Source: a virus. From it: DNA of 64,000 nt. The notes beneath the pieces are model-generated. The model worked only from the letters and a program-made list of their open reading frames with translations. It was not told the origin of the DNA and made no database searches. Made by a program: the position numbers and the translations under genes. Positions 1 through 48,681 of this stretch are shown here, one piece after another; the first letter of the stretch is position 1, and each line of letters starts with the position of its first letter. Where the stretch lies: UHGV virus genome UHGV-0033085, one strand, 5' to 3'.

Positions 1-861
1 AACCTGGCCTCCCGTAATGCAGGCTTTATCAACAAGCGTTTTGACGGCGTGCTGGCAAGCGAACTGGCTGACCCGCAACTGTACAAAACCTTTACTGATG
101 CCGCTGAAGTGATTGGCGAAGCATGGGAAAGCCGCGAATTTGGTAAAGCTATCCGTGAAATCATGGCATTGGCTGACCTGGCTAACCGCTATGTCGATGA
201 ACAGGCTCCGTGGGTGGTGGCGAAGCAGGAAGGACGCGATGCCGATCTGCAGGCGATTTGCTCTATGGGCATTAACCTGTTCCGCGTGCTGATGACGTAC
301 CTGAAGCCGGTACTGCCGAAACTGACTGAACGTGCAGAAGCATTCCTGAATACAGAACTGACCTGGGATGGTATCCAGCAACCGCTGCTGGGCCATAAAG
401 TGAATCCGTTCAAGGCACTGTATAACCGTATCGATATGAAACAGGTGGAAGCACTGGTGGAAGCATCCAAAGAAGAAGTGAAAGCCACAGCCGCACCGGT
501 AACTGGCCCACTGGCTGACGACCCGATTCAGGAAACCATCACCTTTGACGACTTCGCCAAAGTTGACCTGCGTGTGGCGCTGATTGAAAACGCGGAGTTT
601 GTTGAAGGCTCTGACAAACTGCTGCGTCTGACACTGGATCTCGGTGGTGAAAAGCGTAATGTCTTCTCAGGCATCCGTTCTGCTTATCCAGACCCACAGG
701 CACTGATTGGTCGTCATACCATTATGGTGGCTAACCTGGCTCCGCGTAAAATGCGCTTCGGTATCTCTGAAGGCATGGTGATGGCTGCTGGCCCCGGCGG
801 GAAAGATATCTTCCTGTTAAGCCCGGATGCTGGTGCTAAACCAGGCCACCAGGTTAAGTAA
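1..861 (+). CDS. metG: methionine--tRNA ligase MetG, C-terminal part (5-prime end outside window)
   Basis: Frame 1 open from base 1 to TAA 859-861; translation resembles the anticodon-binding and C-terminal tRNA-binding domains of enterobacterial MetRS. Confidence 0.9.
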
Positions 862-883
862 TTAAACAACCTCTCTTCGCAAT

Positions 884-908
884 GCCCGGCAACACGCTGG
901 GCATTTTC
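884..908 (+). terminator. intrinsic terminator of metG
   Basis: GCCCGGC-aacac-GCTGGGC hairpin followed by ATTTT, 23 nt after the metG stop. Confidence 0.6.
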
Positions 909-944
909 ATATAGACACAATCCCTTCTGATTTACACAGTACCT

Positions 945-1010
945 AAAACAATTTGTTTTCTGCCTTTTGTTGTTTGAGATAATAAGCCACATAAGAAAAC
1001 AACTTGTTTT
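945..1010 (+). promoter_or_regulatory. promoter-operator module: palindrome AAAACAattTGTTTT (945-959), -10 GATAAT (about 977-982), palindrome AAAACAactTGTTTT (996-1010)
   Basis: Two copies of a 15-bp palindrome 51 bp apart bracketing a sigma70-like -10 box; RBS and start codon follow within 15 nt. Confidence 0.5.
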
Positions 1011-1022
1011 GGAGTGGTTGAA

Positions 1023-1322
1023 ATGTTGAACATTACCCAAGCCTACCAGGTGGCATTGATCAGTTCATCTCATACATCAGAGGAAGATGCTCGCCGATTC
1101 ATGATCGCAAGCAATGAGCTGGATTGGGTTTCACAAATTGACGGCGGTTGTATTGTCCACGCTGGGTTACAGGATGATGTCTGGAAAGACGACTTGCGTC
1201 GATATGGTATATCCGAAGGCGCGATTGCTAACATTCAGAAAGTACTTGATGTAGGCTTTGACTCTGTACATTTTGATTGTGGTGCACCGGTCGTTGAAGG
1301 GCTTGAGTGCTGGCAATGGTAA
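1023..1322 (+). CDS. hypothetical small protein
   Basis: ORF track 1014..1322; ATG at 1023 directly after operator and GGAG. Confidence 0.5.
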   Translation: MLNITQAYQVALISSSHTSEEDARRFMIASNELDWVSQIDGGCIVHAGLQDDVWKDDLRRYGISEGAIANIQKVLDVGFDSVHFDCGAPVVEGLECWQW

Positions 1323-1358
1323 TCCGGCAATCGCTTCATACTAGATAACGGAGAATTT

Positions 1359-1544
1359 ATGCTTAAAGAAGACTCATATCTACTAAAGGCGCTTGAAATG
1401 CGTGGCGTTGAACCTACAGTGAAAAACGCTCACGATATCTACCTTCAGTTTTCGCCAGAGCTGAAACAGCTCATAAATAAATATGGAGTGAATGACTCCA
1501 GCGTCAAAGCCATGATAGATGATGAATTAGACCATCTCATCTAA
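1359..1544 (+). CDS. hypothetical small protein
   Basis: ORF with GGAG 7 nt upstream of ATG. Confidence 0.5.
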   Translation: MLKEDSYLLKALEMRGVEPTVKNAHDIYLQFSPELKQLINKYGVNDSSVKAMIDDELDHLI

Positions 1545-1656
1545 CCAAACCGTTGATAATGGCGGTCACAATTTGATTCTTTTCTATAAGAATCCGTTGA
1601 TCGCCACTACTCCCCTTCCATGCCTGCAATCACATCCTTAAATATCAATAGGTTAT

Positions 1657-1684
1657 AGTTGTTTATACCAATAAGAAAACAACT
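1657..1684 (+). promoter_or_regulatory. split operator-like inverted repeat AGTTGTTT-N12-AAACAACT
   Basis: Same half-sites as the AAAACA-N3-TGTTTT palindrome but in tail-to-tail arrangement, at the start of the CA-rich unit. Confidence 0.35.
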
Positions 1685-1689
1685 GAATA

Positions 1690-2512
1690 ACAGATCAACG
1701 AAACGTCAACGCTTTCACCCGATTTGGTCTAAAAAATTGACGTTTTCACACATCACTTCTTATACTCGTAATCCTACGCAGCAGACAGCTCCACAGCGTC
1801 CAATTTTCACTACAGACGACTCAACACACTACCAACAAAAACACACGCTCAAAATCGCTCCCGTTACGTTACACAACCATATAAACAACTTATTTTCAGG
1901 CATAACAAAACAACTAAATAACACATATGCCACTCCCCAAAACAACCAACCTCTTTATGGCAGGCTACCGAAAAGACCCACCTCTTCTTCCCAGGCTACC
2001 GGACAGCCAACCTAACTTTCACAGGCAATCCGAAAACATTCATACGCGCGATACCCACGACACGCCATTCCCCAAACAGCGAAGAAACACCAGAATCACT
2101 GAAAACCCAACGAAGCCTGTAACCGCAAGGATTCTCTCAATCCCAAAAGACACGAAACATAACAATCACGGGAAACGCCATTACCCAATACACGAATAAC
2201 TACAAAAGCCCTTCACGCACTCCAGACAAACAACTCAAACACAACAACGAAAGGAATCGCCCACCTGCCATTACTCCATACATGGAGAAGAACAATCACC
2301 AAAACGACGAGAACACCCCATAGAAGAACCACCGCAAAACGAACGAAACCACATACACCGACAGAGAAAACAACACACCCAATTCACCAACAGAAATAGT
2401 CGCCGTATAGAACATTCTGGAAGGAGTGAGCATTAACGCCTATAGAGAGGTTGAGACAGATAAAACACAACATGCATAGCGAAGAAGCCAGGTATGTATA
2501 AGTGGGGAGGGA
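1690..2512 (+). ncRNA. candidate non-coding CA-rich, G-depleted transcript unit
   Basis: About 0.8 kb where the + strand is almost only A and C; lies between an operator-bearing promoter region and a terminator; overlapping ORFs are low-complexity without RBS. Confidence 0.3.
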
Positions 2513-2536
2513 AGGAGGGGTGTCGCCTCCTTTTTC
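2513..2536 (+). terminator. intrinsic terminator
   Basis: AGGAGG-ggtgtcg-CCTCCT hairpin followed by TTTTT. Confidence 0.55.
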
Positions 2537-2596
2537 GTATTTATTCAACTCCTGATTTTGTCCCCCGTAACACCCCTACGGTCAGCCTTCGGTCCA

Positions 2597-2733
2597 TACA
2601 GGGAAAAGGCTGCATCCCGCTACAGAAACGGCTGGGTTGCCTTCGGGGAACGGCTGGAGGTTTTCAGGGAAACGGTCGAGTTGCCTGTGTGGATTTCGGG
2701 AAAAGGCTCGATGCCGGTTCAGGAACGGCGGCG
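2597..2733 (+). repeat. iteron-like direct repeat array (six copies, consensus TTCAGGGAAACGGCTG)
   Basis: Copies starting about 2599, 2623, 2645, 2665, 2695, 2719; spacing 21-30 bp. Confidence 0.6.
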
Positions 2734-3066
2734 TACCGGTATAGCGTGAGGGAGAGTTTCGGCTACCCACCTGCAATGTGCGGGAAGAAGAGAGGCGCTC
2801 ACGTGCAGGCGGACTAACTTACCGTTGGACTCCCTTTGAATGCCCAACTACAGCGTAATTGTGCCAGAGAGTCAGCGGGTCACAATCGATTTCAGTAGGT
2901 TTTCGGGGAGAGGATTATTCTGCCCACCAGCCACCTTCGGCCACTAAATCAGAATAATGTAAAAAGTGTACTCGGTACTGAACCTGAAAACTCACTGCCA
3001 AAACCACATTCACCGGAATAAAATCCTTTTTCACCTGTGCGTTATTACGATAATAACACCAACAAG

Positions 3067-3081
3067 AAAACATGTTGTTTA
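3067..3081 (+). promoter_or_regulatory. operator palindrome AAAACAtgtTGTTTA downstream of a GATAAT -10
   Basis: Member of the AAGAAAACA-N3-TGTTT family; overlaps the first ATG of the downstream ORF. Confidence 0.45.
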
Positions 3082-3422
3082 AGAATTGCTTTATGTTTGC
3101 AAATATCGACATCAACCAAATCAAGAAATTGACTCAAAAAGAGTTTGACCAGTTCTATGAGCTGGAAGGTTGGTCTTCCACTCTGATTAATTCAAGATGG
3201 GTGCTGGAGCTGATGACTCGTGATGATGCACCTGCTTTGATGATCAGCGACCTGGGTGAAGATGCTGACTTTATGGATATGAGCGAATTTTGTGTGGACA
3301 CATACAACCGCAGCCAGAAGTACTACTTCACATGCGATAGCGAGAACGACGTGATTTCTAAGGTCTATCTTCACCTTGTCCAGCATTGGGACGTTCAGGA
3401 GTTTCTTGAAGTATTCGAGTAA
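3072..3422 (+). CDS. hypothetical acidic protein
   Basis: ORF track; start uncertain (ATG 3072 or 3096). Confidence 0.45.
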   Translation: MLFKNCFMFANIDINQIKKLTQKEFDQFYELEGWSSTLINSRWVLELMTRDDAPALMISDLGEDADFMDMSEFCVDTYNRSQKYYFTCDSENDVISKVYLHLVQHWDVQEFLEVFE

Positions 3423-3551
3423 ACCCAACCAAAGCCAGCAATGCTGGCTTAACTTCATCTATAGCCGCAGGGAAGAACCTGCATATCGCTCATGCACCTG
3501 ATCAATATGCTTTGTAGCCGTTTTCTTACTGGTATTATTTACGCCATTGAG

Positions 3552-3566
3552 AAAACAAGTTGTTTA
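3552..3566 (+). promoter_or_regulatory. operator palindrome AAAACAagtTGTTTA
   Basis: Family member 13 nt after a TATTAT -10-like box; followed by GGAG and ATG 3577. Confidence 0.45.
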
Positions 3567-3576
3567 CGGAGTTGTG

Positions 3577-3888
3577 ATGAAAAAATCATTGGTTCTTGGT
3601 CTGGACAAAGACCAGAAGAGAAAAGAGAAGCCTGCACTGGTTGCTCAATTAACTTTGCTGGACATCGTTGCCAATGGGACCTCTATTCGTCTGTTCCGTG
3701 AAACAGCGGTGTCTTTCGATAAAAACACCTTTACTCGTTATGTAATGAATGTTCGTCGCCAGCGTGGAAAAGGCTGGGTGGCATTTCAAAGAATGTGGCC
3801 GGAACATCAGCTCGAACTGGCTTTGATGGAAGTTAACCGCGTGGCCCAGCAAGAGATTCAGAGAGCATCAGTGATGGCAATAGCCTGA
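3577..3888 (+). CDS. hypothetical basic protein
   Basis: ORF track 3547..3888; ATG 3577 preceded by ACGGAG. Confidence 0.5.
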   Translation: MKKSLVLGLDKDQKRKEKPALVAQLTLLDIVANGTSIRLFRETAVSFDKNTFTRYVMNVRRQRGKGWVAFQRMWPEHQLELALMEVNRVAQQEIQRASVMAIA

Positions 3889-3923
3889 TAATGTGCAAGT
3901 GGCAATTAGTCGACAGTACGACA

Positions 3924-3950
3924 GCCCCGCCATCCTTACGGGGCTTTTTT
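3924..3950 (+). terminator. intrinsic terminator
   Basis: GCCCCG-N9-CGGGGC hairpin plus T6. Confidence 0.65.
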
Positions 3951-3955
3951 GTATT

Positions 3956-3971
3956 GTAAGTACATACTTAC
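3956..3971 (+). promoter_or_regulatory. TAAGTA box (GTAAGTACATACTTAC)
   Basis: Member of the recurrent GATAAGTAAGTA / TAAGTA-N-TACTTA family, 44 nt upstream of ATG 4015. Confidence 0.4.
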
Positions 3972-4014
3972 GATCATAGAATAGAAAAATAACCAATACA
4001 CTACGGAGAGTGAA

Positions 4015-4410
4015 ATGACCGTTAAACGCGAAAAACTGACAGTTGATGTTTACTATGCCTCTGAAACCGCCGAAGGTAAGAATGTGGCAAAAATCACCGT
4101 TGTTACGTACAACACCGAAACTGGTGCCGAAGTCCAGGCCAGTACGATCGTGCGTAAAGGTGATGCCTCCGGCGGCGAGTACGCGACTCAATACCAGTCC
4201 ATTCTCGATGCAACTGACCCGCTGCTGCTGAAAATCGAGAACTACTTCCGCCAGGTTGATGAAGAGGTGTTTGAAACCATGATGAGTATGGTTAATTCCG
4301 TATTCACCTCCAGCCTGAACACCAGCACCACCTGGATTGGCCAGTACGGTCTGCGTATTACCTCCGGCATTCCTGCTGACACCTTAATCCCTGAAAGCGT
4401 ATTCGCTTAA
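4015..4410 (+). CDS. hypothetical protein
   Basis: ORF with ACGGAGAG RBS. Confidence 0.55.
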   Translation: MTVKREKLTVDVYYASETAEGKNVAKITVVTYNTETGAEVQASTIVRKGDASGGEYATQYQSILDATDPLLLKIENYFRQVDEEVFETMMSMVNSVFTSSLNTSTTWIGQYGLRITSGIPADTLIPESVFA

Positions 4411-4419
4411 TCCTCTTTA

Positions 4420-4446
4420 AATGGCGCGTAAACCGCGCCATTTTCT
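4420..4446 (+). terminator. intrinsic terminator
   Basis: AATGGCGCG-taaac-CGCGCCATT hairpin followed by TTTC. Confidence 0.6.
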
Positions 4447-4454
4447 TATGCCCG

Positions 4455-4520
4455 ATAACAATTTGTTTTCTGCCTTTATCTTACTGCGATAATTACAACA
4501 ACAAGAAAACAACGTGTTTA
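4455..4520 (+). promoter_or_regulatory. promoter-operator module: ATAACAattTGTTTT (4455-4469), -10 GATAAT (4488-4493), AAAACAacgTGTTTA (4506-4520)
   Basis: Near-duplicate of the 945-1010 module, including the shared TTTGTTTTCTGCC string. Confidence 0.5.
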
Positions 4521-4537
4521 TTAGGTGGTGAAATAAT

Positions 4538-4690
4538 ATGGAATACATTGTTACTGTCGCTTCGTCAGATCGGGAGTCGTTACTTGAGGCTATCAGAAGC
4601 ATGGAAAACATCATCATGTCAGAGCAGGAGCTTAATGGTTATCTTGAGATGGATGATTTTTCTATCAAAATGGAGGTGAAGAATGACTGA
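4538..4690 (+). CDS. hypothetical small protein (50 aa)
   Basis: Not in ORF track (under 60 aa); AGGTGG RBS; stop overlaps next start (ATGA). Confidence 0.35.
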   Translation: MEYIVTVASSDRESLLEAIRSMENIIMSEQELNGYLEMDDFSIKMEVKND

Positions 4691-4964
4691 CTTCACCATT
4701 ACCCCTAAAGCACAAAATGTATTTCTTGAATCATGGCTGGACTTGCCGGAAACAGAACAGCAAGAAATGGATCATGTGGAATATGACGAGCAGGTAAGCA
4801 CGCGATTCTTCCACTTTGAGGGCTGCGTTTACGACATTGCCGACTTCATGCGAGATGACCGCTTCCCTGAATGGCACGCCAGTTATCCACTAAACGCCTT
4901 CGCCATGCTGATGATCCGTGTGGATGATTCAGGGGATACCATCGACATCGGTCTGCTCCACTAA
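4683..4964 (+). CDS. hypothetical protein
   Basis: ORF track; start overlaps upstream small ORF. Confidence 0.5.
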   Translation: MTDFTITPKAQNVFLESWLDLPETEQQEMDHVEYDEQVSTRFFHFEGCVYDIADFMRDDRFPEWHASYPLNAFAMLMIRVDDSGDTIDIGLLH

Positions 4965-4969
4965 AGAGT

Positions 4970-4993
4970 AAGGCCACCAATGCTGGTGGCCTT
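4970..4993 (+). terminator. conserved GC-rich hairpin AAGGCCACCA-atgc-TGGTGGCCTT (terminator-like, no U-run)
   Basis: Perfect 10-bp stem right after the stop codon; near-identical copy at 6039-6062. Confidence 0.4.
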
Positions 4994-5064
4994 AAATGAC
5001 AACACTTTGCCTTACTTCCTGATAGTAGCCTTATAAATCTTCTTTTTAGCCTATTTCATTCAGC

Positions 5065-5086
5065 GATAATTATCACATCGAAAACA
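5065..5086 (+). promoter_or_regulatory. GATAAT -10 plus AAAACAA half-site
   Basis: Same GATAAT-N10-AAAACA spacing as the other modules but only one half-site. Confidence 0.35.
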
Positions 5087-5101
5087 AACGAGGAATTAAA
5101 A

Positions 5102-6034
5102 ATGAAACCAGTATTTTTGGGACAAATTGACATTAGTGAATTGTTTTCAGTTAAAGATGGGTCCCAATATGACTGTGATTGCCTTGAACTTAATGGTCTT
5201 GAATATGAATACAGATTGGCTATTGTGAATGATGGTAAGAAGACATTTTCTGTCGAATGTTTTAAAAATACTTACTTTAAGCATGTGTTGAGAATAAGAC
5301 AGCGTGTGGAGATGTCAATTCGGGAAAACATCAAAAATAAATGTGAGTTTCTTGCGATTAAAAATGAAATAGATGCAATAAACTTTGTTACGTTCACTGA
5401 TAGTGGTCGATTGGCTATGCTGGAGCTATTTCATCTGATCGTTTCTAATAACAGTATAACAGAAGCCTTGATCAGTCTTTCAACTATAGTATCAAAAGAA
5501 AGAGAACACACTGGCGCTTTAATTGTAGAGAAGCTAGGTGGAATACTCGAGAAGATCAAAAATAAAGAGTTGATTATAGAATATGGCAAGGAAAGTAGAA
5601 AAAATAATTTACATTCAGCTTTTCGTTCCCCATATGTTGAGCGTTTAAATGGTTCGGCATCTTTTGTTAATTTAGAGTTTAATAGATTCTTTAGTTCTCT
5701 TTTTACAGAGTATGGAATTGTTATTGTGGAGGTAAATAATGAGAATGATGTGCCAAAAATCATAGTGCATTCGATGCCGGATATCCCTTTCAATGAGATT
5801 GAGAACAAACTGGAGATTTTAGACGATATAAATACAAAAAGCATGGAAGAACTCATAGAGTATCTGGCCGTAGATGCGGTAGCTATGGCTGATAATGATG
5901 TGTTTGGGGTTGGTGCACTGCATGAAGGCTATCTTGACGCCCTTGAACTTTACGGGACTGCTCGCTGGTTTCTGTCAGGATTAGTGGATGATGCGCCTTT
6001 ACTCATCAATACAGATTATTCTTATTCCAGTTGA
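5102..6034 (+). CDS. hypothetical protein (310 aa), AT-rich gene
   Basis: Long ORF with GAGG RBS; base composition clearly more AT-rich than flanks. Confidence 0.55.
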   Translation: MKPVFLGQIDISELFSVKDGSQYDCDCLELNGLEYEYRLAIVNDGKKTFSVECFKNTYFKHVLRIRQRVEMSIRENIKNKCEFLAIKNEIDAINFVTFTDSGRLAMLELFHLIVSNNSITEALISLSTIVSKEREHTGALIVEKLGGILEKIKNKELIIEYGKESRKNNLHSAFRSPYVERLNGSASFVNLEFNRFFSSLFTEYGIVIVEVNNENDVPKIIVHSMPDIPFNEIENKLEILDDINTKSMEELIEYLAVDAVAMADNDVFGVGALHEGYLDALELYGTARWFLSGLVDDAPLLINTDYSYSS

Positions 6035-6038
6035 AAAC

Positions 6039-6062
6039 AAGGCCACCAGCAGTGGTGGCCTT
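6039..6062 (+). terminator. conserved GC-rich hairpin AAGGCCACCA-gcag-TGGTGGCCTT
   Basis: Second copy of the 4970-4993 hairpin with a different loop. Confidence 0.4.
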
Positions 6063-6203
6063 AAATGACCATCCTGTTTCCCGCAGGCTAAAAACACCAA
6101 CCTCTTACCTCCAGGCAACCGACAAACCCACCTGTTCCCGTCCGGCTACCGCAACTTTCCACTTTGACGCCTTATTCGTACAACGATAATTAACACAAAC
6201 AAG

Positions 6204-6218
6204 AAAACAATTTGTTAT
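6204..6218 (+). promoter_or_regulatory. operator palindrome AAAACAattTGTTAT downstream of GATAAT -10
   Basis: Family member; TTGACG -35-like and GATAAT upstream; GAGGA RBS downstream. Confidence 0.45.
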
Positions 6219-6237
6219 TTACGATGAGGAATTAATC

Positions 6238-6720
6238 ATGAACTTTATCGCTACTGTAAACGCACCCGCACATGGCAATATCGCTGTAACGTTCTCTGAC
6301 ATTGAAAAACGAGTACTTGGTGCATGGCGCGACAATGAGACGGTAGAACTGTCAGCACAAGAAAAATGCATTATTGCACGCGACATCATTGGCAATCGTC
6401 GTTACTCGCGGGTATTTGAGAAAGCGTATGTGGTAAATTCTGGATTCGGAACGTTCGTCTTTCCGGTGCGCTCCGGGCGATTCTGCCAGTCCAAGCTGAT
6501 TGAGTTCGCTACGCAGATTTCTGTCTGGATTAAAACTCAATCGTCGTTCAAATTTTCCGACGATGAAGCAGTATCGCAGGGGATGCGGATCGCCAACAAT
6601 GCGATTAAATGCAAAAACATTACGTATACCGCTGGCGTTGACACATGGAAACTGTTTTGCGCTAACTTTATGCTGAATGTATACGCAAGCAACCGCATCC
6701 ACATCCTTGATGGCGTGTAA
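6238..6720 (+). CDS. hypothetical protein
   Basis: ORF track with RBS. Confidence 0.55.
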   Translation: MNFIATVNAPAHGNIAVTFSDIEKRVLGAWRDNETVELSAQEKCIIARDIIGNRRYSRVFEKAYVVNSGFGTFVFPVRSGRFCQSKLIEFATQISVWIKTQSSFKFSDDEAVSQGMRIANNAIKCKNITYTAGVDTWKLFCANFMLNVYASNRIHILDGV

Positions 6721-6729
6721 CTGAGAAGA

Positions 6730-6750
6730 GGGCCAGAAACGGCCCTTTCT
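6730..6750 (+). terminator. intrinsic terminator
   Basis: GGGCC-agaaac-GGCCC hairpin plus TTTCT. Confidence 0.5.
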
Positions 6751-6769
6751 CTATAGCCACCAGCTGCCG

Positions 6770-6890
6770 CAGGGAAATTTTCAGAAACGGCGAGGAACGT
6801 ATTCATGAGCCGACGGGGAACGGCCAGGATTTTTTCGGGAAACGGCTGCATTCGCCTTTATGTAGAAAAACATCGGGAAGCTGGTGGAAT
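6770..6890 (+). repeat. second iteron-like array (CAGGGAAA / CAGAAACGGC / GGGGAACGGCC / GGGAAACGGCTG / GGGAAGCTGG)
   Basis: Same repeat family as 2597-2733. Confidence 0.5.
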
Positions 6891-6972
6891 CCAACCAGCG
6901 GTTGTCGGACAGGTGAGCGGGGAAAATCATGATGACTTTCGTCGCCTGAGACATCCAGATTTCTTTCGTAGC

Positions 6973-7017
6973 ATAATCACATACGTGATTAAGTGGTGTG
7001 ATTATGTGAAAAATCAC
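6973..7017. repeat. cluster of inverted GTGATT / AATCAC hexamers
   Basis: ATAATCACATACGTGATTAAGTGGTGTGATTATGTGAAAAATCAC; five hexamer copies in 45 bp. Confidence 0.4.
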
Positions 7018-7311
7018 GCGCACATAATACGCGAGCGGATACGGAACAAAACAAAATGCCGATCCGCGCCGACAAATAAACGCGGATCATAAAGCAAGAC
7101 TAAAAGCCAATGATTAACCATACTCTATAGCGCAATATAACGCGTTTTAAGCGCGTTAATATGTTAAGTAATGGGTATGTACTGGTAAGGATATAAAAGC
7201 GCGTCTATGGCGTTATTTTGGCGCTTATTTTTATGTTGTTGGAGTGAGTTAAAGACAATAAAAAACGCGCTAATGATGGCGCGTTATGGTGGGAGTATTG
7301 GAAACGAAAAA

Positions 7312-7330
7312 AGCGCCCATAGTGGGCGCT
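7312..7330 (-). terminator. terminator hairpin AGCGCCCA-tag-TGGGCGCT for the leftward operon
   Basis: Hairpin flanked by A-run and T-run just past the stop of 7336..7566; identical copy at 7820-7838. Confidence 0.55.
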
Positions 7331-7335
7331 CGATT

Positions 7336-7566
7336 TTATTTGTGTAAACTGATTTTAAATCCCATTTCTACAAACGCTTTTAACATTAAAAATATATCAG
7401 CGTCGTTCACGTCTGCTTTTTTTCGCTCCTGGTCGCTCAATAAGTCAATTTTGCGCGTCGTTTCATCTATAAGCTCGACTGCGCGCCCAGCGTAACCAGC
7501 GATCCCAGCGATGCGATTAACATAATATTCATTATGGACGTTAACGCCAGCGATAAGAACAAACAT
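7336..7566 (-). CDS. hypothetical protein
   Basis: ORF track; AAGGAG RBS. Confidence 0.5.
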   Translation of the reverse strand: MFVLIAGVNVHNEYYVNRIAGIAGYAGRAVELIDETTRKIDLLSDQERKKADVNDADIFLMLKAFVEMGFKISLHK

Positions 7567-7586
7567 GATTAAGCTCCTTAAAAAAA

Positions 7587-7802
7587 TTAAATAGAATTTT
7601 GAAGTTTTCCGATTAATGCGCTTAAACGTAAGTATTCACGTTTGCGCTTGCAATCTCGCTTGCTGTTAAGCAAATCAGAAAACGTAAAATTTAATTGGTC
7701 GCGTTGCGCGATCAAATCATCGATTAATTCCAGTTTATAAGCGCGATACTTTGCGCGATACTTTGCGCGATACTTTGCGCGGATCTTGTCATAGCTGACC
7801 AT
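7587..7802 (-). CDS. hypothetical basic protein with AKYR tandem repeat
   Basis: ORF track 7587..7847 shortened to the ATG at 7800-7802, which has an AAGGAG RBS; upstream codons would read through a terminator hairpin. Confidence 0.45.
   Translation of the reverse strand: MVSYDKIRAKYRAKYRAKYRAYKLELIDDLIAQRDQLNFTFSDLLNSKRDCKRKREYLRLSALIGKLQNSI
7741..7782 (-). repeat. 12-bp tandem repeat GCGCGATACTTT x3.5 inside CDS
   Basis: Encodes the AKYRAKYRAKYR segment. Confidence 0.6.
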
Positions 7803-7819
7803 TTTTAAAGCTCCTTTAA

Positions 7820-7838
7820 AGCGCCCATAGTGGGCGCT
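7820..7838 (-). terminator. second copy of hairpin AGCGCCCATAGTGGGCGCT
   Basis: Immediately past the stop of 7851..8501. Confidence 0.5.
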
Positions 7839-7850
7839 TGATTCCATTAA

Positions 7851-8501
7851 TTACGCTTTAAAAGCATCAGCTAAATAATTGTAGAAATCATTCTTGATAA
7901 AGCGATATTGCTGTGTACCAGCTTTGGCGCTTCCCATTCCTTTGACTTTCTCAACAAGTCCGAGACGTTCGCAAAGATTGATTAGCTGGTTAGCTTGAGT
8001 ATAGCCAGCGTCCAATTTAATTTCACACGCTTTTTTAGCTTCATTCATTAAATCGAAAACAGCGCCATTCGTGAACGTGTCGATCTCGTCGTTAATCATA
8101 TCGATTAAAGCGAATACACGAGATCCAGACATATCAGCGATGGAATAAACGCATTTACCAGATTTAATTGATTTAACCAGATAAACCAGTTTTTCCAGTG
8201 AATAACTATTAGTCATAGCATCACGAAAAAATACTTCTGGCGCTTGTTTGCTTGCTTTAATCGCATAGTAGAAAACAGAGCACAATTTTTCGTCTTCTAC
8301 AGCGTTTACAACGTTGTTGATGAAGTAAGCAAGTTTAGTGGTCGCAGCTTGCATATTTGCTTTGTCTGCTTTAGTGTGCGTACCATTTTTATAATGTTCG
8401 TTATATGTTTGAGTTGCTAGATCTGCTTTTTCGCGCAGCTCGTCGGATACAATAGATGCAGCTTCAATGATGGACTTTTTAGAAATGATAATGTTAGCCA
8501 T
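7851..8501 (-). CDS. hypothetical protein (216 aa)
   Basis: ORF track; AAGGAA RBS. Confidence 0.55.
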   Translation of the reverse strand: MANIIISKKSIIEAASIVSDELREKADLATQTYNEHYKNGTHTKADKANMQAATTKLAYFINNVVNAVEDEKLCSVFYYAIKASKQAPEVFFRDAMTNSYSLEKLVYLVKSIKSGKCVYSIADMSGSRVFALIDMINDEIDTFTNGAVFDLMNEAKKACEIKLDAGYTQANQLINLCERLGLVEKVKGMGSAKAGTQQYRFIKNDFYNYLADAFKA

Positions 8502-8763
8502 GATTTTATTCCTTAGTATAAATATTAAAATTTAACTCAAGAAAGAAAGTGTTTTGCACTCGTTCCTGATGCGTTCAATTATCGACACGCGAAAAAAGAT
8601 TGCAAGTATTTTTTTAAGTTTTTTGCAGGGATGAAAGTCCTAGAAATAAAAGCGAGATCGTCGAAGGTGTTCCCTAAATAAATAATAAATTCCGGCTTTT
8701 GACCTTATATATTTATACGGGGGAGAATTGAATGAGTGTTAAACGAATGGCATGTAAAATAAT

Positions 8764-8781
8764 AACCGGACTTAGCCGGTT
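8764..8781 (-). terminator. terminator hairpin AACCGG-acttag-CCGGTT
   Basis: Hairpin with T-run on the minus strand, just past the stop of 8798..9316. Confidence 0.5.
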
Positions 8782-8797
8782 ATTACCCTTATAGAAA

Positions 8798-9316
8798 TTA
8801 AAACGGAAGGATTCGTTCAACCCAATCGAAGAAAATAAGTATTTTTCTGCCGTCTTCCAACTTAAGTGTGACTAGACAGGCGTCAACGCCATCTGACGTT
8901 CCCTCAATTTCGCGACCGTCTGCCATGTAGACCCTTATAGATTTGCCGTTTTGGTAAGCCTGACGACATATCTTAAAAAAGTCACGACGTGATGGCTGAT
9001 TAACCATCTGTTCATTGTTTAGCGTTAGTCGACCTGTGAATGAAGTGTCAACCTCTTCTATGCCCGACTCAATTGTGCTAATGCGCTCAAGAGGGAGCCT
9101 TACACGATTTGTGTTGCTAAACGGATCTGGTGTGAGGTTCAGCTTATTTCTTGCGCTCAACAGCCCGTAGACATACATGCAAAACACTTGGCCGTCTTCG
9201 AGAGTGACTCTTACAGGAAATTGAGCACTCCGCCAGAAGAGCAAGGTGCGCTCAGCATGTTCGTAGTCTCGCGGCCAGACTTCAGCCGGTATGCCGTAGG
9301 TGATGTCTTTAACCAT
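8798..9316 (-). CDS. hypothetical protein
   Basis: ORF track. Confidence 0.5.
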   Translation of the reverse strand: MVKDITYGIPAEVWPRDYEHAERTLLFWRSAQFPVRVTLEDGQVFCMYVYGLLSARNKLNLTPDPFSNTNRVRLPLERISTIESGIEEVDTSFTGRLTLNNEQMVNQPSRRDFFKICRQAYQNGKSIRVYMADGREIEGTSDGVDACLVTLKLEDGRKILIFFDWVERILPF

Positions 9317-9418
9317 AGTCTACCTTTTTAAGTCTTTTTTGGTCATTATATACATCTCTATGATGCGTAGACAGACTAACCGTACATTCCACCAAAAATT
9401 GATTATGGAATAAGTTTC

Positions 9419-10219
9419 ATGAAGAATGGGGTGAATAAAAAATACTCATTAGCATTGTTAATAGCGGCTTTACTATTAACAGGTTGTGATTCTGATGAAG
9501 AGCGAGCCATAGATCTAGTTGAAAAGGATATTCGCTCTACACTGCCAGATCCTGATGCTGGTCGGTTCACGAATATGCGAGCTATTCAGTTAGGTGAAAA
9601 TAGCTATTCATATATGGTATGTGGAGAGGTGAATGGTAAAAACGTCTTGAACGCCTATACAGGTGCGACCGCATTCAATGCACACATCTTTGATGTTCGT
9701 GAACGTAACCCGATTGTATTCGTTGCAATGGATAAAAGTACCAACTCGGCAAGAGAACGATTACGTTTTGAACGCCAAAATCTAGCATGTAAAGAAAATG
9801 GTGTGAAACTTTATCTGGAAAACGAATCTAAAATCAGGAAGGAAAAAGAGAAAATAGATGATTTAAAAAAAACTCCATTAGGTCAGGCTGTGTTTGATGC
9901 TGCAAGTGATTCGACATATGTGAGTAGAGAGTTGGGCGAATCGAGAGGTGTTAGTGAAGTGTATGCAAGAGAAAATGATAAATATGCTCTTGTTAGCGTC
10001 ACCAATTATGACACTCCTGACTTTTACAAATTTAGGAAAAAAGACAACGGTGAACTAGAACCTGTTAGGGGACTGTCTTATACCGGCTATCCATTCGCGG
10101 TTACACTGTGCCATTCTGAACAAACAGATTATGACAAATGTATAACAGAAGAAGAAATCAAGTTGCTTCGAGACGAAAAGAATAAGCTCGATGATTTTGT
10201 CGTGCCACCAGAAGAATAA
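9419..10219 (+). CDS. putative lipoprotein
   Basis: N-terminal signal with lipobox LLTGC. Confidence 0.6.
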   Translation: MKNGVNKKYSLALLIAALLLTGCDSDEERAIDLVEKDIRSTLPDPDAGRFTNMRAIQLGENSYSYMVCGEVNGKNVLNAYTGATAFNAHIFDVRERNPIVFVAMDKSTNSARERLRFERQNLACKENGVKLYLENESKIRKEKEKIDDLKKTPLGQAVFDAASDSTYVSRELGESRGVSEVYARENDKYALVSVTNYDTPDFYKFRKKDNGELEPVRGLSYTGYPFAVTLCHSEQTDYDKCITEEEIKLLRDEKNKLDDFVVPPEE

Positions 10220-10280
10220 TATATACAAAATATTTAATTGCTGTTAATATTTAATTGTTCAGACATAGGGAAAGCCCGAA

Positions 10281-10312
10281 CCCTCGACAAATCTTTCTGA
10301 TATTGTCGAGGG
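10281..10312. terminator. bidirectional terminator hairpin between convergent genes
   Basis: CCCTCGACAA-N12-TTGTCGAGGG, perfect 10-bp stem. Confidence 0.55.
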
Positions 10313-10331
10313 TATGCTTCCAAGTGATGAG

Positions 10332-10706
10332 CTACTTATACCCTAATTCTTTACAGCTTTCTTCAAAAACCTCTTTAGGTAGGATATTTAGATCTACAAT
10401 AGTGTTGCTGTTCTTGGTTAACACGTCATTGTAAGGAATTTGTACCCATCTGTAACCTGTATACCCACCATATGAGTTAGTCGCATTTAGTTTGAAACAA
10501 TATGTATTGCTACCTTCAACGTGATCTGGGAATTTGTATTTAGCTGCATCCGGGGCCAGTAATTGTTTTTCTATAATATTTTTAATGTAATCTTGCTGAA
10601 CGGGCGTTAAAGGTTTGGCTACTGTATTTCCTATATAGAATGCCAAGAATGCCATAGAAAAAAATTGAATTTTTTTAGACTTCATCTTTTTAACCGTCTT
10701 TGACAA
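10332..10706 (-). CDS. secreted hypothetical protein
   Basis: Predicted N-terminal signal peptide; AT-rich. Confidence 0.5.
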   Translation of the reverse strand: MSKTVKKMKSKKIQFFSMAFLAFYIGNTVAKPLTPVQQDYIKNIIEKQLLAPDAAKYKFPDHVEGSNTYCFKLNATNSYGGYTGYRWVQIPYNDVLTKNSNTIVDLNILPKEVFEESCKELGYK

Positions 10707-10713
10707 TGAGAGT

Positions 10714-11289
10714 TTATGAGCGTTTGTTGAGCAGATCTACAATCAGCTTTTGAGGTGTATTTTCCTCTTTTGTCTTAGGTAATCCATTCTGAGGTAGCGT
10801 CGATAGTCTGTTCTTATCTCCTCTAGGTAACTCAAGCCTTTTCTTGATCTGCACAATAAGTTCCCATAGACTGTCTTCGTTCTCAACCTTTATAGAGTAG
10901 CCTACGCCACAATATGAATCACTTTTTAAGCGATTGTGAATTTTGAACGTATTGAAGTTTGAGCTTAACTGAATATATCCAGGGGTAATACCATCTATAT
11001 TTTCGATCACAGGGAGTATTTCTTTTATCTGGAAAGGGAAAATGACCAATGAATAATCATCTCGTCTTTCCTCATTGTCTGGTGAAATTAAATAAATGTA
11101 GTAAGGGTTGTTTTTTGAATAAGATTCTCGTAATGCTGAACTCTTTCCGAAGTAGAAACCTTTAGCGTGAATTTTATCTTTCGTTTCTTTCCCCCGTTGT
11201 ATCTGAATGTTACTTTCGCTAAGTGTCCCATTTGATACATATGAAGCTTTATCCAATATCGTGTGAAGTTGTGTATTTGAAAGAGCCAT
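10714..11289 (-). CDS. hypothetical protein
   Basis: ORF track; same leftward operon. Confidence 0.5.
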   Translation of the reverse strand: MALSNTQLHTILDKASYVSNGTLSESNIQIQRGKETKDKIHAKGFYFGKSSALRESYSKNNPYYIYLISPDNEERRDDYSLVIFPFQIKEILPVIENIDGITPGYIQLSSNFNTFKIHNRLKSDSYCGVGYSIKVENEDSLWELIVQIKKRLELPRGDKNRLSTLPQNGLPKTKEENTPQKLIVDLLNKRS

Positions 11290-11433
11290 TAGCTATCCCT
11301 TCGACCAAACTCAGCGATGAAGCCTACAAATATCATTCAGCCAATCAAGAATTTTTTTCAGCCGGAGGTGTGCACTTCAAAAAATGTGATGAATGTCACA
11401 TGCAGGTGCTCTCATACACCTGCATGTAGACTA

Positions 11434-12000
11434 TTAATCATTCAATAATCTATATTTTCTTTTGATTAAATCTTCACCTTTTTTGGTGAACACAAAACCA
11501 AATTGCGATTTTTTGTTCAGCCTAAGGACTCTGTTATCCAACGCATCGGTTGATGGAATCAATGTTTGATCATCTATCCAATTTAGTAGCGTAAGAAAGT
11601 TCAACAGCCTCAACGTTGTTGTGCGAAGCTCTTTCGATATATTTTCAATGCTGGCAATTCGTCTTTCTTTTTTCTCAGGTGGTACAGATAATTGTTCTTG
11701 AGGTTTCGTGGATAGATAATCAATTTCGTTTGCAGCATCGAATGATATGTGTGGCGTTATTTTGCTAAAAAAGCCTTTCGCTGACTCACTTGATAATAAA
11801 CCAGACCTATTCATATCGTTTGTTATTCTGTACAGGAGTGGACTGTGTTTCATTTCAGGATAACGTTGATAAAAGTTAAGCAATTCAAAAGCAGCATTAG
11901 CGCCAACAAGAAAATCAGAAGGATCGCTGACTTTCCAGAAAGAATGATTTTTCTTAGCGCCAGTGGTGTCAACAAATGATAATTCTTTTAACCAACTCAT
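11434..12000 (-). CDS. hypothetical protein
   Basis: ORF track 11434..12033; ATG at 12000 has an AAGGAG RBS. Confidence 0.5.
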   Translation of the reverse strand: MSWLKELSFVDTTGAKKNHSFWKVSDPSDFLVGANAAFELLNFYQRYPEMKHSPLLYRITNDMNRSGLLSSESAKGFFSKITPHISFDAANEIDYLSTKPQEQLSVPPEKKERRIASIENISKELRTTTLRLLNFLTLLNWIDDQTLIPSTDALDNRVLRLNKKSQFGFVFTKKGEDLIKRKYRLLND

Positions 12001-12065
12001 GATGTGCTCCTTTCTAACAAGTGAGCACATCATAGAATTAGTAGATAGGGGGTAAATATGAAATG

Positions 12066-12344
12066 TTACGGCAACCTGCTCAGTATTTCCTCTAAATCTT
12101 TTTTTGTCATATTGGAGTTTTCATAGATGCGCATGATTTTCTCACGCGTCTTAGCGGAAACCCCAACGGCAGATGTGACTTTGTCAAATTCAGCCATAGT
12201 CATCGTCTCCAGAATGGCATTGATAACTTCAGCCTTAGACATCTTGATTTTTTTCTCTTTGAGTTTTATTTGAAATTTTCCAAGTTTTTCATTGGCCTTA
12301 TCAGACAATGCCACTTGGCAATAAGTTGTTTTTTTTTCGCTCAT
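12066..12344 (-). CDS. hypothetical small lysine-rich protein
   Basis: ORF track; immediately downstream of the helicase gene. Confidence 0.45.
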   Translation of the reverse strand: MSEKKTTYCQVALSDKANEKLGKFQIKLKEKKIKMSKAEVINAILETMTMAEFDKVTSAVGVSAKTREKIMRIYENSNMTKKDLEEILSRLP

Positions 12345-12346
12345 AA

Positions 12347-13906
12347 CTAATCTCGTTTCAGAATTCCAAAATCGAATGCGCCATCAATAGGCAATACACC
12401 TTCCGCAAAGCCAGGTGTGGTGTCGATGATGTGTTTTCGCTCATAAGAGTGAGACAACAGGTATTTGTTGCTAGTGTCAATGAAATCAGTGATAAAACAC
12501 ACGTTTGCCTGATTCTTCTTGGCTCGTAAGCCACGACCGACACGCTGCCTCATTTCAACTTCTGCTTTCCCACCACCAGCAAGAATGACCGCACCAACGC
12601 TTGGCACATCAACACCGACATCCAGAATAGTCGAGCCTATTAAAACATCTATTTCTCCAGACGCTAAACTGTTCAGCTTTGCTTGCCTTGTCGCCTGGTT
12701 AGATTCCCCATAGATGAAATCAACTCTAAGACCTGACTCCTTCATCATCTCCATCAGGATTTGCCCGTGGCGTTTAAGACGAACCAGAGTCATGCAGTTG
12801 AGTGAATGTTGCTTATAAAGCAATGCCTCGCGCACTATGGCCTCGTTACGTCCCAAATTATACACGATCCCCAACTGATAAGCCTTTTGGTAGGCGGTGC
12901 TCATACCAACTCTAAAATTGAGGTGTTTGTTGGCAAGTTCGGCCTTGATTCTGGTCTCGTCTGGCTTGTAGGCAACTTTATGATAAAGGAAGTACGGCTT
13001 TGCCAGAATGCCTCGATCAATCAGGTACTTTTCTGTGACTTTAATTTCAATTCGACCGGCCACAGCCATCAGACGCATGTTGGCTTCTGTAGAATCCTTC
13101 ATGAACGGCGTGGCCGTAAGCGCCAGACGATAGTCTGCGTTCACACATAATCTGGCAATGTCATAGAAATTAGAGCCTGAAGACTCATGCGCTTCTTCCA
13201 GAATAAGTAGAGACACACTTGAAAGGAAGCGTTTCACTAGCTCCCGACGTTTGAGGTGGTAGCTCTTTTTATCTGGTGTTGCATCGCGTGGTGGTTCTTC
13301 AAGGAAACTTGCCAGAGTTTGAACTGTAGCGACGTTGATATGTCGTGATACCTGGAACTCACCCGAGCCAATGACTCCAACCTTTTGGTCCTTTAACCAC
13401 GGTTCGCCATTTTCGGCGCGGTAGTCGATGGATCTCTGGAAGTTTTCGGCCATTTGAAACATCAGAACAGAGCGGGTTGTTAAAAATAATGTCATTCGAC
13501 CGATACGTGCAGCTGCTTTGCAGGCAACGTTAGATTTCCCACCACCAGTAGCGATCTGCGCAATCATCATTCCCTCGCGAACTAGTGTTTCCACAGTCTG
13601 ATCCTGATACGCATAATCAGGATTGTATGGGAATGGGTTAACCGCCGGATTTGGCTTTCCAAGCGCCGGGGCTTTGTCTTTGCGGATATGAACACATTTG
13701 ATGCCCGCCTTGTTCAAGTTCGCCGCTACAGGCTTGGCAAATCCAGCAGGGAACGAGTTTTTACTCCAGTTGAACATCGTGCTTGTGCCCTTCCAGTCGC
13801 CAGTCTCGACTTCGTAGCTCAACATTTGCTGCACCAGTTGCTTTACCTTGTCATCTGCGCCAGAAATAAGCGCATTTACTGCGTTAGATACAATCCGAAC
13901 AGTCAT
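12347..13906 (-). CDS. superfamily 2 DEAD/DEAH-box helicase
   Basis: Motif I ATGGGKS, motif II LEEAHE, motif III TATP, motif VI QRVGRGLR. Confidence 0.8.
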   Translation of the reverse strand: MTVRIVSNAVNALISGADDKVKQLVQQMLSYEVETGDWKGTSTMFNWSKNSFPAGFAKPVAANLNKAGIKCVHIRKDKAPALGKPNPAVNPFPYNPDYAYQDQTVETLVREGMMIAQIATGGGKSNVACKAAARIGRMTLFLTTRSVLMFQMAENFQRSIDYRAENGEPWLKDQKVGVIGSGEFQVSRHINVATVQTLASFLEEPPRDATPDKKSYHLKRRELVKRFLSSVSLLILEEAHESSGSNFYDIARLCVNADYRLALTATPFMKDSTEANMRLMAVAGRIEIKVTEKYLIDRGILAKPYFLYHKVAYKPDETRIKAELANKHLNFRVGMSTAYQKAYQLGIVYNLGRNEAIVREALLYKQHSLNCMTLVRLKRHGQILMEMMKESGLRVDFIYGESNQATRQAKLNSLASGEIDVLIGSTILDVGVDVPSVGAVILAGGGKAEVEMRQRVGRGLRAKKNQANVCFITDFIDTSNKYLLSHSYERKHIIDTTPGFAEGVLPIDGAFDFGILKRD

Positions 13907-13970: not shown

Positions 13971-14669
13971 GTGGATTGTAGCAATAAAATGGACGTAAAA
14001 ATCACGATTTTGCAGGTTGATGTTGCCAACCTTCGCCCGAATACCTGGAACACAAATTCGGTTGGTGCGCAGAATTTTGAAAAACTGAAAGGTTCTATCG
14101 AAAAATTGGGCTTTTTTAAGCCAATTTTGGCTCGTGAACTTGAAGATGGATTTTTTGAAATCCTCGGCGGCGAACATCGCTGGCGTGCTGCTATTGAGCA
14201 AGGAATTTCAACGGTTCCGGTACTTTCTGTGGGCAAAATTAGCGATGTCGTGGCAAAACAGATGTCACTGGTGGACAACGAGCGATACGGTGAAGACGAC
14301 CAAATCGCATTGCAACGCTTCATTGAAGAAATTCAGTCAGAACTTGACTATCAACTGTCTGAAATCGCCCCGTATGACGACGAAATCTCGATGGTTTTAG
14401 CAAAAGAGGCTGCAATCGACCTTGAAGTACTGGAGGCGTTGTCTCGTGGTAGTGATGAGCCTGTCGATACCGACAAACGAGAGAAAACCGAACGTGTGGG
14501 GGCGGAACATCAGACCATGCGCTTCAAAGTAACTTTCGATGCGTCAGATCGTGTTGCAGAAACCATAAAAAACATCATCAAAGAGCAGGCTATTAACACC
14601 GGTAATGAAATGGAGAACGCTGGTGAGGCTCTGGTGTGGCTGGTCGACTACTACAAGGAGCGTATGTAA
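13971..14669 (+). CDS. ParB/Srx N-terminal domain protein
   Basis: GGEHRWRAA motif; start may be ATG 13989. Confidence 0.65.
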   Translation: MDCSNKMDVKITILQVDVANLRPNTWNTNSVGAQNFEKLKGSIEKLGFFKPILARELEDGFFEILGGEHRWRAAIEQGISTVPVLSVGKISDVVAKQMSLVDNERYGEDDQIALQRFIEEIQSELDYQLSEIAPYDDEISMVLAKEAAIDLEVLEALSRGSDEPVDTDKREKTERVGAEHQTMRFKVTFDASDRVAETIKNIIKEQAINTGNEMENAGEALVWLVDYYKERM

Positions 14670-17508: not shown

Positions 17509-17548
17509 AAAACAAGTTGGTTAGCAGATGCAGTAAACAAGTTGTTTT
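17509..17548 (+). promoter_or_regulatory. two adjacent operator-like palindromes AAAACAagtTGGTTA and TAAACAagtTGTTTT
   Basis: AAAACA-N3-TGTTTT family, 40-80 nt upstream of the small terminase gene. Confidence 0.45.
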
Positions 17549-47604: not shown

Positions 47605-47619
47605 AAAACAAATTGTTTC
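47605..47619 (+). promoter_or_regulatory. operator palindrome AAAACAaatTGTTTC upstream of parA
   Basis: AAAACA-N3-TGTTTT family; GATAAT 5 nt downstream. Confidence 0.45.
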
Positions 47620-48322: not shown

Positions 48323-48681
48323 TGTCCATGAAAATGGGTGACCTAGCAAAGCGCAAAGAGCCTGATGCACCGGCTAAGAACACAACTCCTTTGCGCCAAC
48401 CAGTCAGACCACAGGGACGCCCGACTCGTGGCAAAGAGAAAATTAAAAGCCGCACAATGTCACTGGAGGACGAATACTTCGAACTGCTGGAGATGATGAA
48501 GTTCATCCCTCGCTTCGAGAAGTTCACTCGTTCTGACGTGATTCGAGCAGCCATTTTCCATCTGGCAGAGAAGTCACCGCAGGAAATCGAGGACATCGTG
48601 AAATTGAATGAGGCGATCACCGCTGCCGATGTCACGATGCGTACCGATGAAATCAAACGAGAGTTGATGAAGAAAGGTTAA
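48322..48681 (+). CDS. ParG-like partition partner (putative)
   Basis: Small basic protein coupled to parA. Confidence 0.45.
   Translation: MSMKMGDLAKRKEPDAPAKNTTPLRQPVRPQGRPTRGKEKIKSRTMSLEDEYFELLEMMKFIPRFEKFTRSDVIRAAIFHLAEKSPQEIEDIVKLNEAITAADVTMRTDEIKRELMKKG

Follow-up and report, generated by a model that had tools for sequence, protein, structure and literature searches.

The 310-amino acid (aa) gene at positions 5102..6034 (+ strand) of the virus genome UHGV-0033085, a stretch of 64,000 nucleotides that is referred to below as the window, lies in an array of small genes in an element that resembles the SSU5 phage-plasmids. The open reading frame (ORF), consisting of 310 codons and a stop codon, begins with ATG at 5102 and is preceded by a Shine-Dalgarno sequence, GAGGA (5090..5094, + strand, 7 nt 5' of the ATG), which is invariant across the homologous loci; the leader was unstructured (fold -2.9 kcal/mol, z = +1.07). 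A promoter module at 5040..5089 (+ strand; repeat families D1 and D7), homologous to the other promoters of the array, contains a weak T-run resembling a -35 element (about 5043-5048), the -10 sequence GATAAT (5065-5070), and the half-site AAAACAAAC (5081-5089). The gene is followed by a stem-loop, AAGGCCACCA-GCAG-TGGTGGCCTT (6039..6062, + strand; whole hairpin AAGGCCACCAGCAGTGGTGGCCTT), with a 10-bp GC stem and a folding energy of -18.5 kcal/mol, which forms the core of a right direct repeat (6026-6069) and is followed by TAAATGAC. In the most distant carrier, L011, a hairpin is kept at this position with an entirely different stem sequence. The motifs by which the initial annotation, made from the sequence alone, had delimited the gene, namely GATAAT (5065-5070) and AAAACA(AAC) (5081-5089) upstream and the hairpin (6039-6062) downstream, were thus all present. 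That annotation had not included a nearly identical stem-loop upstream, AAGGCCACCA-ATGC-TGGTGGCCTT (4970..4993, + strand; -19.2 kcal/mol, z = -3.7), likewise with TAAATGAC, which stands straight after the stop codon of the 93-aa gene on the left and is the core of the left direct repeat (4957-5000). The cassette is therefore bracketed by a direct repeat (family D9; 44 nt, 77% identity, spacing 1069), and the hairpin pattern gave two exact matches in 64 kb with none expected.

The limits of the cassette were given by an empty site in relatives. In Escherichia phage Cyrano (L002), the sequences corresponding to window positions 4683-5000 and 6039-7300 were contiguous, and a single 31-bp copy of the hairpin and TAAATGAC matched both window copies; the same empty site was found in Klebsiella phage pJN2-26 (L014) at about 78% identity. 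In both, the 93-aa gene (4683-4964 in the window; PHROG 1845) and the 160-aa gene (6238-6720) were adjacent, parted only by one hairpin and an intergenic region. The accessory cassette was therefore set at 5001..6069 (1,069 bp, + strand), with a drop in GC content at 5001, and holds the 310-aa gene together with its promoter module and ribosome-binding site, as well as the second stem-loop with TAAATGAC.

The gene had been described beforehand as visibly more AT-rich than its neighbors, and this was borne out. The GC content of the ORF was 35.8%, against a window mean of 45.9% (standard deviation 3.7% for 933-bp windows); a GC content as low occurred in just 0.8% of the 933-bp windows, and the lowest-GC 933-bp stretch in the 64 kb (start 4991) fell on the 310-aa gene. 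The windowed profile differed clearly from the flanks, with a step from 52 to 32% at 5001, a recovery at about 5900, and 46-49% GC in both neighboring genes. Among 67 called genes, the 310-aa gene was second lowest in GC (z = -2.3) and in GC at third codon positions (31.8%, z = -2.0). A deviation in codon usage was found in one measure and not in the other: synonymous usage departed from the element pool (B = 0.40, same-protein null 0.26 +/- 0.03, z = 4.25; sixth among the 32 genes with 200 aa or more, five of which deviate more), whereas a score of the codon adaptation index type, calculated against the element's own usage, was unremarkable (rank 18 of 67). Likewise, of the enrichment of the product in isoleucine, asparagine, and lysine that had been stated, the first two were confirmed (9.0 vs. 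5.9% and 7.4 vs. 4.7%), together with leucine, glutamate, and phenylalanine, and lysine was not raised (6.1 vs. 6.6%). Other AT-rich genes lay at 7851-12344 in the window (34-39% GC), and no paralogue of the 310-aa protein was found within the window by phmmer or hmmsearch.

The last approximately 130 bp of the gene (5901-6034) returned to about 51% GC, the remainder being at 30-39%, and over the same stretch the identity to L003, the allele at 62%, climbed to 0.82-0.88; the recombination history of the 3' end may differ from that of the body. On the minus strand, three sigma-70-like promoter matches were observed at 5202-5318, the best being TTGACA-16-TATTCT (10 of 12). An antisense ORF at 5431-5856 (141 aa) was rejected as a gene, as its frame was not open in the most distant carrier, L011 (longest stop-free stretch, 74 codons), and selection fell on the sense frame; such antisense promoters and the antisense ORF are typical by-products of AT-rich DNA. 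It is plausible that the AT-rich stretch is a target of H-NS in Escherichia coli.

To look for relatives of the 310-aa protein, 1.84 billion representatives were scanned exhaustively with HMMER, and 5.8 billion proteins were covered by two word-indexed searches; these yielded three homologues (P0001, P0002, and P0003), a distant one (P0005), and a truncated chimera (P0004); P0006 was rejected as a spurious coiled-coil match. A metagenome scan gave one true copy (88% identical), and a second hit (L019) was false, being a low-complexity coiled-coil in a 1,110-aa protein that shared merely NLEFNRFF. IMG/VR contained two near-identical copies and no homologue outside SSU5-like elements, and none was found in 185,579 GTDB species-representative genomes. 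The family thus comprised only four protein clusters, at 98, 89, 62, and 27% aa identity, all in the same slot on SSU5-like contigs of about 50-110 kb, the closest being seen on a few hundred contigs. Carriers were rare: 3 of the 238 complete E. coli genomes with the 160-aa gene, and 7 of the 641 PLSDB records matching the flanks. In L011, aa identity to the window was 90% for the helicase, 82% for the ParB-like and 93-aa proteins, 73% for the 216-aa, 64% for the 160-aa, and 35% for the 131-aa protein, and 26.5% for the 310-aa protein, which makes the 310-aa gene the fastest-evolving syntenic gene in a generally fast-evolving array. Every allele was AT-rich (36-42% GC) beside neighbors of 46-49%, even where dS, the synonymous divergence, was saturated (>2), and the conserved 216-aa and 191-aa accessory genes had 31-40% GC in every lineage. 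Low GC is therefore a stable trait of these accessory genes and no date stamp, and recent acquisition does not follow from it.

The slot itself was variable in content, and its alternatives were the empty site, the 310-aa gene, and, in SSU5 itself, a minus-strand gene, SSU5_116. In every carrier the 310-aa gene was directly 5' of the 160-aa gene, and its upstream neighbors were the pair of a 50-aa ORF (4538-4690) and the 93-aa gene in the window, and elsewhere a 124-aa gene, a 136-aa gene, a ParD/ParE pair, ParDE with a 232-aa gene, or a pair of 78-aa and 99-aa genes; the adjacent slot holds ParDE-type toxin-antitoxin pairs. Across carriers, the left breakpoint lay either at the hairpin (4969-4971 in the window) or at the promoter module (5039 in the window). 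Comparison of the window with L003 gave identities of 0.55-0.88 in the gene and 0.98-1.0 from position 6057 on. The dS of the 310-aa gene was 0.70 against L003 and 0.13 against L007, 3- to 15-fold above that of the adjacent 160-aa gene (0.047). Given this gap in dS and the switch exactly at the hairpin, the difference from L003 amounts to allele replacement, the recombination breakpoint being in the stem-loop, and the pairwise data already point to incongruence between gene and backbone.

A different junction was observed in an 829-bp metagenome contig (L020), in which codon 78 (window position 5333) was fused, through 11 bp of microhomology (GGAAAACATCA), to position 4603 near the end of the 50-aa ORF, with the 93-aa gene on both sides. 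This variant may reflect a tandem duplication or a rearrangement, or it may be the junction of a circle comparable to the mini-circles of promoter-early stem-loop (PeSL) cassettes.

At least six promoters of the array (900-6240) share a T-rich -35 element, GCC, a spacer of about 16 nt, (C)GATAAT, TA-ACAC-A-ACAAG, and AAAACAAnnTGTTT. With one mismatch allowed, the palindrome AAACAAnnTGTTT gave 30 strand matches in the window against 2.85 expected, an approximately ten-fold enrichment, and its copies were located at or just 3' of GATAAT-type promoters. Those in the array were at 946-958, 997-1009, 1883-1895, 3068-3080, 3553-3565, 4456-4468, 4507-4519, and 6205-6217, and further copies preceded the gene upstream of the terminase (17510-17547; starts 17510 and 17535), the parA-like gene (47606-47618), the DnaB-like helicase gene (50536-50548), and cobT (61207-61219). 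The distribution looks like that of an element-wide operator regulon, for which the candidate regulators are an FljA-like protein (8798-9316, minus strand), the ParB-like pair (13989-15337), a 119-aa protein encoded after parA (48322-48681), and the prophage repressor. When ten promoter modules were aligned, the right half-site was absent only at the 310-aa gene, where the Shine-Dalgarno sequence comes directly after the left half. The module at 5040-5089, half-site included, was kept upstream of every homologue whatever the upstream neighbor, also in L011, and it was duplicated before another cassette in L007 and L018; we infer promoter activity for it. Since this promoter travels with the gene and carries only an operator half-site, the gene is likely to be outside operator control, and more likely escapes it than obeys it. 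Neither SSU5 operators nor accession WP_044071370 turned up in the literature.

A direct repeat of about 30 bp (ACC-ACCT-TT-CC--CAGGCTACCG-AA) was also observed, in three copies that separate the hairpin from the promoter of the 160-aa gene (6062-6155) and in two copies at 1939-2005. The repeats had no Rfam match. In both L011 and Klebsiella pJN2-26 they were well conserved despite flanks of only about 70-79% identity, which suggests that they may be a functional non-coding element, e.g., protein-binding iterons. No Rfam family was found in window positions 1-13000 at E <= 1.

The ratio of non-synonymous to synonymous divergence (dN/dS) of the 310-aa gene was 0.32-0.39 against three diverged alleles, compared with 0.05-0.13 for the 160-aa neighbor. 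The start codon, the ribosome-binding site, and the blocks VLRIR, FNRFF, and (V/L)NNEN..P.I.VH were conserved down to 27% identity, and an intact frame was seen in the window, in each of the four full-length diverged alleles, and in most members of the closest cluster (46 sequences). By these comparisons, the ORF is a coding gene under selection, with a constraint that is relaxed or in part diversifying. Against the closest alleles (L012, L015, and P0001) there were 6-7 differences, all non-synonymous (dN 0.008-0.010, dS 0), with E55K, Q61H, N136H, and E144K specific to the allele of the window; the substitutions are too few to separate positive selection from relaxation. The predicted product was a soluble, acidic protein (isoelectric point 4.8) of 35 kDa with no hydrophobic segment (maximum KD19 1.29). 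It had no match in Pfam-A at E <= 10, no significant match in PHROGs (best E = 0.06), none in NCBIfam (best E = 0.048, 13 bits vs. a cut-off of 344), no family among the defence-system hidden Markov models of PADLOC-DB 2.0 at E <= 1, and none in the PDB by single sequence (best by profile, E = 0.05). An AlphaFold2 model from five sequences (mean predicted local distance difference test score, pLDDT, 55.8) had a beta-rich N-terminal part, a long helix (117-153), and an alpha+beta C-terminal domain with no convincing fold. The product is a cytoplasmic orphan and, as it stands, an ordinary hypothetical protein.

The initial annotation had interpreted the locus as a recently acquired moron under the element's own regulatory module. 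The moron part was supported in the structural sense: the flanking genes are adjacent in relatives, the GC content deviates, and the gene has its own promoter-like module and a 3' stem-loop. The recency was not supported, given alleles down to 27% identity in the same slot, all AT-rich, and conserved accessory genes that are equally AT-rich; nor was the regulatory part as worded, given a module that belongs to the cassette, stays with the gene, and carries the operator half-site only. We consider that the locus is probably a self-contained, AT-rich cassette of the moron type, an old, rare, and fast-evolving resident of the accessory gene pool of the SSU5 group that is exchanged at one slot among these elements. 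According to this model, the cassette of 1.07 kb brings along its promoter module and 3' stem-loop as well as a strong ribosome-binding site, and sits in a hot-spot between the 93-aa and 160-aa genes; homologous recombination at the bracketing stem-loop and promoter repeats would lead to its gain, loss, and exchange, an equivalent part to that which PeSL motifs play in T4-type phages; and, with half an operator, its expression would probably be independent of the regulator of the neighbors.

Several observations weigh against the exchanged cassette or its parts. In seven E. albertii plasmids of about 62 kb (e.g., p2014C-4015-1, L001 6064-6996), the gene is 99% identical and a pseudogene owing to a stop codon at E135 (GAA to TAA), the interrupted gene being annotated by RefSeq as two separate hypothetical proteins, and one metagenome variant is a truncated chimera; the gene is therefore dispensable and may bring little benefit. 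Neither stem-loop is followed by a U-tract on the + strand, and a terminator scan flagged the downstream one on the minus strand only, so that the stem-loop may not terminate transcription. It occurs only twice in the window and is thus no general mark of each cassette, unlike PeSLs. A sigma-70 consensus scan made no call at the promoter, whose -35 element is weak. Finally, only a backbone phylogeny could separate gain of the cassette from its repeated loss.

Two other histories were weighed. A recent import from a low-GC donor outside the element family, placed afterwards under an operator-controlled promoter, would account for the lowest-GC kilobase of the window, the rarity of the gene among relatives, the direct-repeat bracket with its precise empty site, and the absence of the gene from PHROGs when every neighbor is in one; it is, however, quite unlikely, because the four alleles occupy the same slot of SSU5-like elements only, with no homologue outside them in the GTDB representatives, IMG/VR, or the 1.84 billion representative proteins, the AT-richness persists at dS >2 and is common to conserved accessory genes, and the promoter module travels with the gene and is without the full operator. 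A slightly less improbable account, to which we nevertheless give little credence, is purely vertical: the gene would be ancestral to the array and have undergone many hairpin-to-hairpin deletions with no horizontal exchange. The same slot is indeed used in very divergent lineages, the flanking direct repeat is an obvious substrate for deletion, and pseudogenised and truncated copies exist; however, the 3- to 15-fold excess of dS over that of the 160-aa gene, with its switch at the hairpin, requires allele replacement, and the upstream neighbors are reshuffled independently. The exchanged resident cassette is thus the history that we prefer. With respect to current function, the premature stop in the seven plasmids, the chimera on L020, and the exclusively non-synonymous differences among the closest alleles, four of them window-specific, would fit a decaying or selfish passenger whose ORF is intact in the window by chance; we regard this as having little chance of being correct, given a dN/dS of about 0.33 across the deep comparisons, the frame intact in the window, the four full-length diverged alleles, and most of the 46 closest sequences, and the conserved start codon, Shine-Dalgarno sequence, and promoter.

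The product would most likely act in phage-host or phage-phage conflict, a guess from context. The most likely guess, which we hold only tentatively and well below even chances, is an exclusion or defence function expressed in lysogens; it derives from context, the gene being rare, AT-rich, and quick to evolve, and having a fixed slot in a hot-spot and a putatively autonomous expression module whose operator is incomplete. Ranked next, and doubtful, is an early host-takeover or anti-defence factor, as are many small early ORFans in the leading regions of plasmids and the hyperplastic regions of T4-type phages: the array consists of small genes with early-type promoters beside T4-like functions (the UvsW-like helicase and, in relatives, a valyl-tRNA synthetase (ValRS) modifier-like gene), and the product is acidic, soluble, and encoded by the fastest-evolving syntenic gene, but with its 310 aa it exceeds those of other array genes two- to six-fold in size, and the gene is without the full operator borne by the putative early genes. 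A more far-reaching proposal, speculative and on the whole rather unlikely, is that the 310-aa protein founds a single-gene anti-phage family (exclusion or abortive infection-like) confined to SSU5-like phage-plasmids, expressed in lysogens from an operator-less copy of an early promoter and shuffled by PeSL-like hairpins and promoters.

The cassette resembles the morons of temperate phages, on which Juhala et al. and Hendrix et al. reportedly wrote in 2000, in being an extra gene between genes that are adjacent in related phages, in having its own promoter-like sequence, a 3' stem-loop, and a base composition deviating from the flanks (35.8 vs. 46-49% GC), and in a function unrelated to known lytic modules. 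It differs from them in that the stem-loop is without a U-tract, it is known here from sequence with prophage expression only predicted, the promoter is a paralogue of those of its neighbors, and the cassette is no one-off insertion but a multi-allelic resident of one slot across a phage-plasmid group. The term moron is used here as in PMC9928086. The one transcriptome found is that of Cyrano, in which some array genes are transcribed in lysogens (PMC9928086), Cyrano itself being without the 310-aa gene. In T4-type hyperplastic regions, PeSL cassettes mediate indels and modular shuffling (Arbiol et al. 2010, PMC2839356; Comeau et al. 2014, PMC4122927). This shuffling is the closest documented mechanism, as a comparison of mechanism and not of membership. 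Both systems have a hyperplastic region of small ORFans, each after a repeated promoter motif, intergenic stem-loops, and end-points of indels or replacements between close relatives that lie in these motifs (here, the empty-site junction, the L003 breakpoint, and the left breakpoints). In contrast, the host here is a temperate siphovirus-type phage-plasmid and no virulent T4-like myovirus, a palindromic operator accompanies the promoter repeats, the stem-loop stands apart from the promoter, about 50-120 bp upstream of it, and is present in only two copies, and mini-circles, known from PeSLs, are hypothetical here. To our knowledge, PeSL-like shuffling has not been described for temperate phage-plasmids.

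Two further systems offer comparisons. The conserved upstream (CUP) repeat regulon in the leading region of IncN plasmids such as pKM101, reportedly the subject of work by Delver and Belogurov in 1997, is said to consist of small accessory genes behind repeated promoter elements with a common repressor, the repeats being recombination sites; this is a lead only, and the element type, sequences, and regulators are different. The variable defence and cargo hot-spots between core genes of P2/P4-like prophages and satellites, reportedly treated by Rousset et al. and Vassallo et al. in 2022, are similar in having a fixed slot between conserved genes with alternative, rare, AT-rich, fast-turning-over cargo. 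They differ in that no cargo of the present slot matches a known defence model, and a defence role here is only a guess. Integron cassettes are promoterless ORFs with attC, with intI and Pc at the head of the array, whereas each gene here has its own promoter module.

As an orphan accessory cassette in a phage hyperplastic region, the gene is an already known kind of thing. About 4% of complete E. coli genomes (238 of 5,426) contain SSU5-like phage-plasmids, which are also common in Klebsiella, Salmonella, and Yersinia and whose accessory genes are almost all unannotated; the cassette is a clean, well-delimited example of cargo exchange among them, with a fixed slot, an exact empty site, and breakpoints in the stem-loop and promoter module. 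The AT-richness, as a stable trait of accessory genes, is unusable for dating acquisition. If the orphan protein proves to be a defence or counter-defence factor, it would add another family to that catalogue, and the half-operator promoter would illustrate, in a simple natural case, how a gene can be uncoupled from a regulon that spans the element. More instructive than the gene itself are the clean evidence that cassettes in a phage-plasmid are exchanged through hairpins and promoters, and the candidate element-wide palindromic operator.

The DNA surrounding the gene matched Escherichia phage Cyrano at 98%, and the same region matched about 640 plasmids of the SSU5/pHCM2 type from Escherichia, Klebsiella, Enterobacter, Yersinia, and Salmonella (641 PLSDB matches). 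Because of these matches and the genes for a methionyl-tRNA synthetase (MetRS), UvsW-like helicase, ParB-like proteins, terminase, DnaB-like helicase, and primase, the window can be assigned, from its sequence, to an Escherichia SSU5/Cyrano-like phage-plasmid. The 3' end of metG, encoding the tRNA_bind and Anticodon_3 domains of MetRS, occupies 1-861 and is followed by the array (1023 to about 7092, all on the same strand), whose products are without known function; 3' of it are minus-strand accessory genes and then the gene for a UvsW-like DEAD-box helicase (12347-13906), next to the ParB-like gene pair (13989-15337). The array is a hyperplastic region of small genes between metG and the helicase gene, and the 310-aa gene is located in this variable accessory region, where it is two to six times the length of the other array genes; every neighbor was assigned to a PHROG of unknown function and the 310-aa gene to none. 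Terminase, ParA-like, DnaB-like helicase, primase-like, and CobT genes were also present, and the sole tyrosine recombinase seen in the window (59193-60296) was 53 kb from the cassette.

In relatives, a full-length MetRS (677 aa; L012 1-1873, L015 79-2112) was directly upstream of the array, and a weak match to the T4 ValRS-modifier family (PF26829) was seen on its other side; together they are an unusual translation-related cargo for a temperate phage-plasmid. The 93-aa protein was called an "ABC transporter" by RefSeq in many SSU5-like plasmids (e.g., L021 3140-3421, L022 3856-4137). This label was rejected as a clue to defence, as the protein had no Pfam or NCBIfam match, and it looks like a propagated mis-annotation. 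At window positions 7741-7781, a 12-bp unit, GCGCGATACTTT, is perfectly repeated in tandem in at least three copies, within or at the end of a minus-strand ORF (7587-7847).

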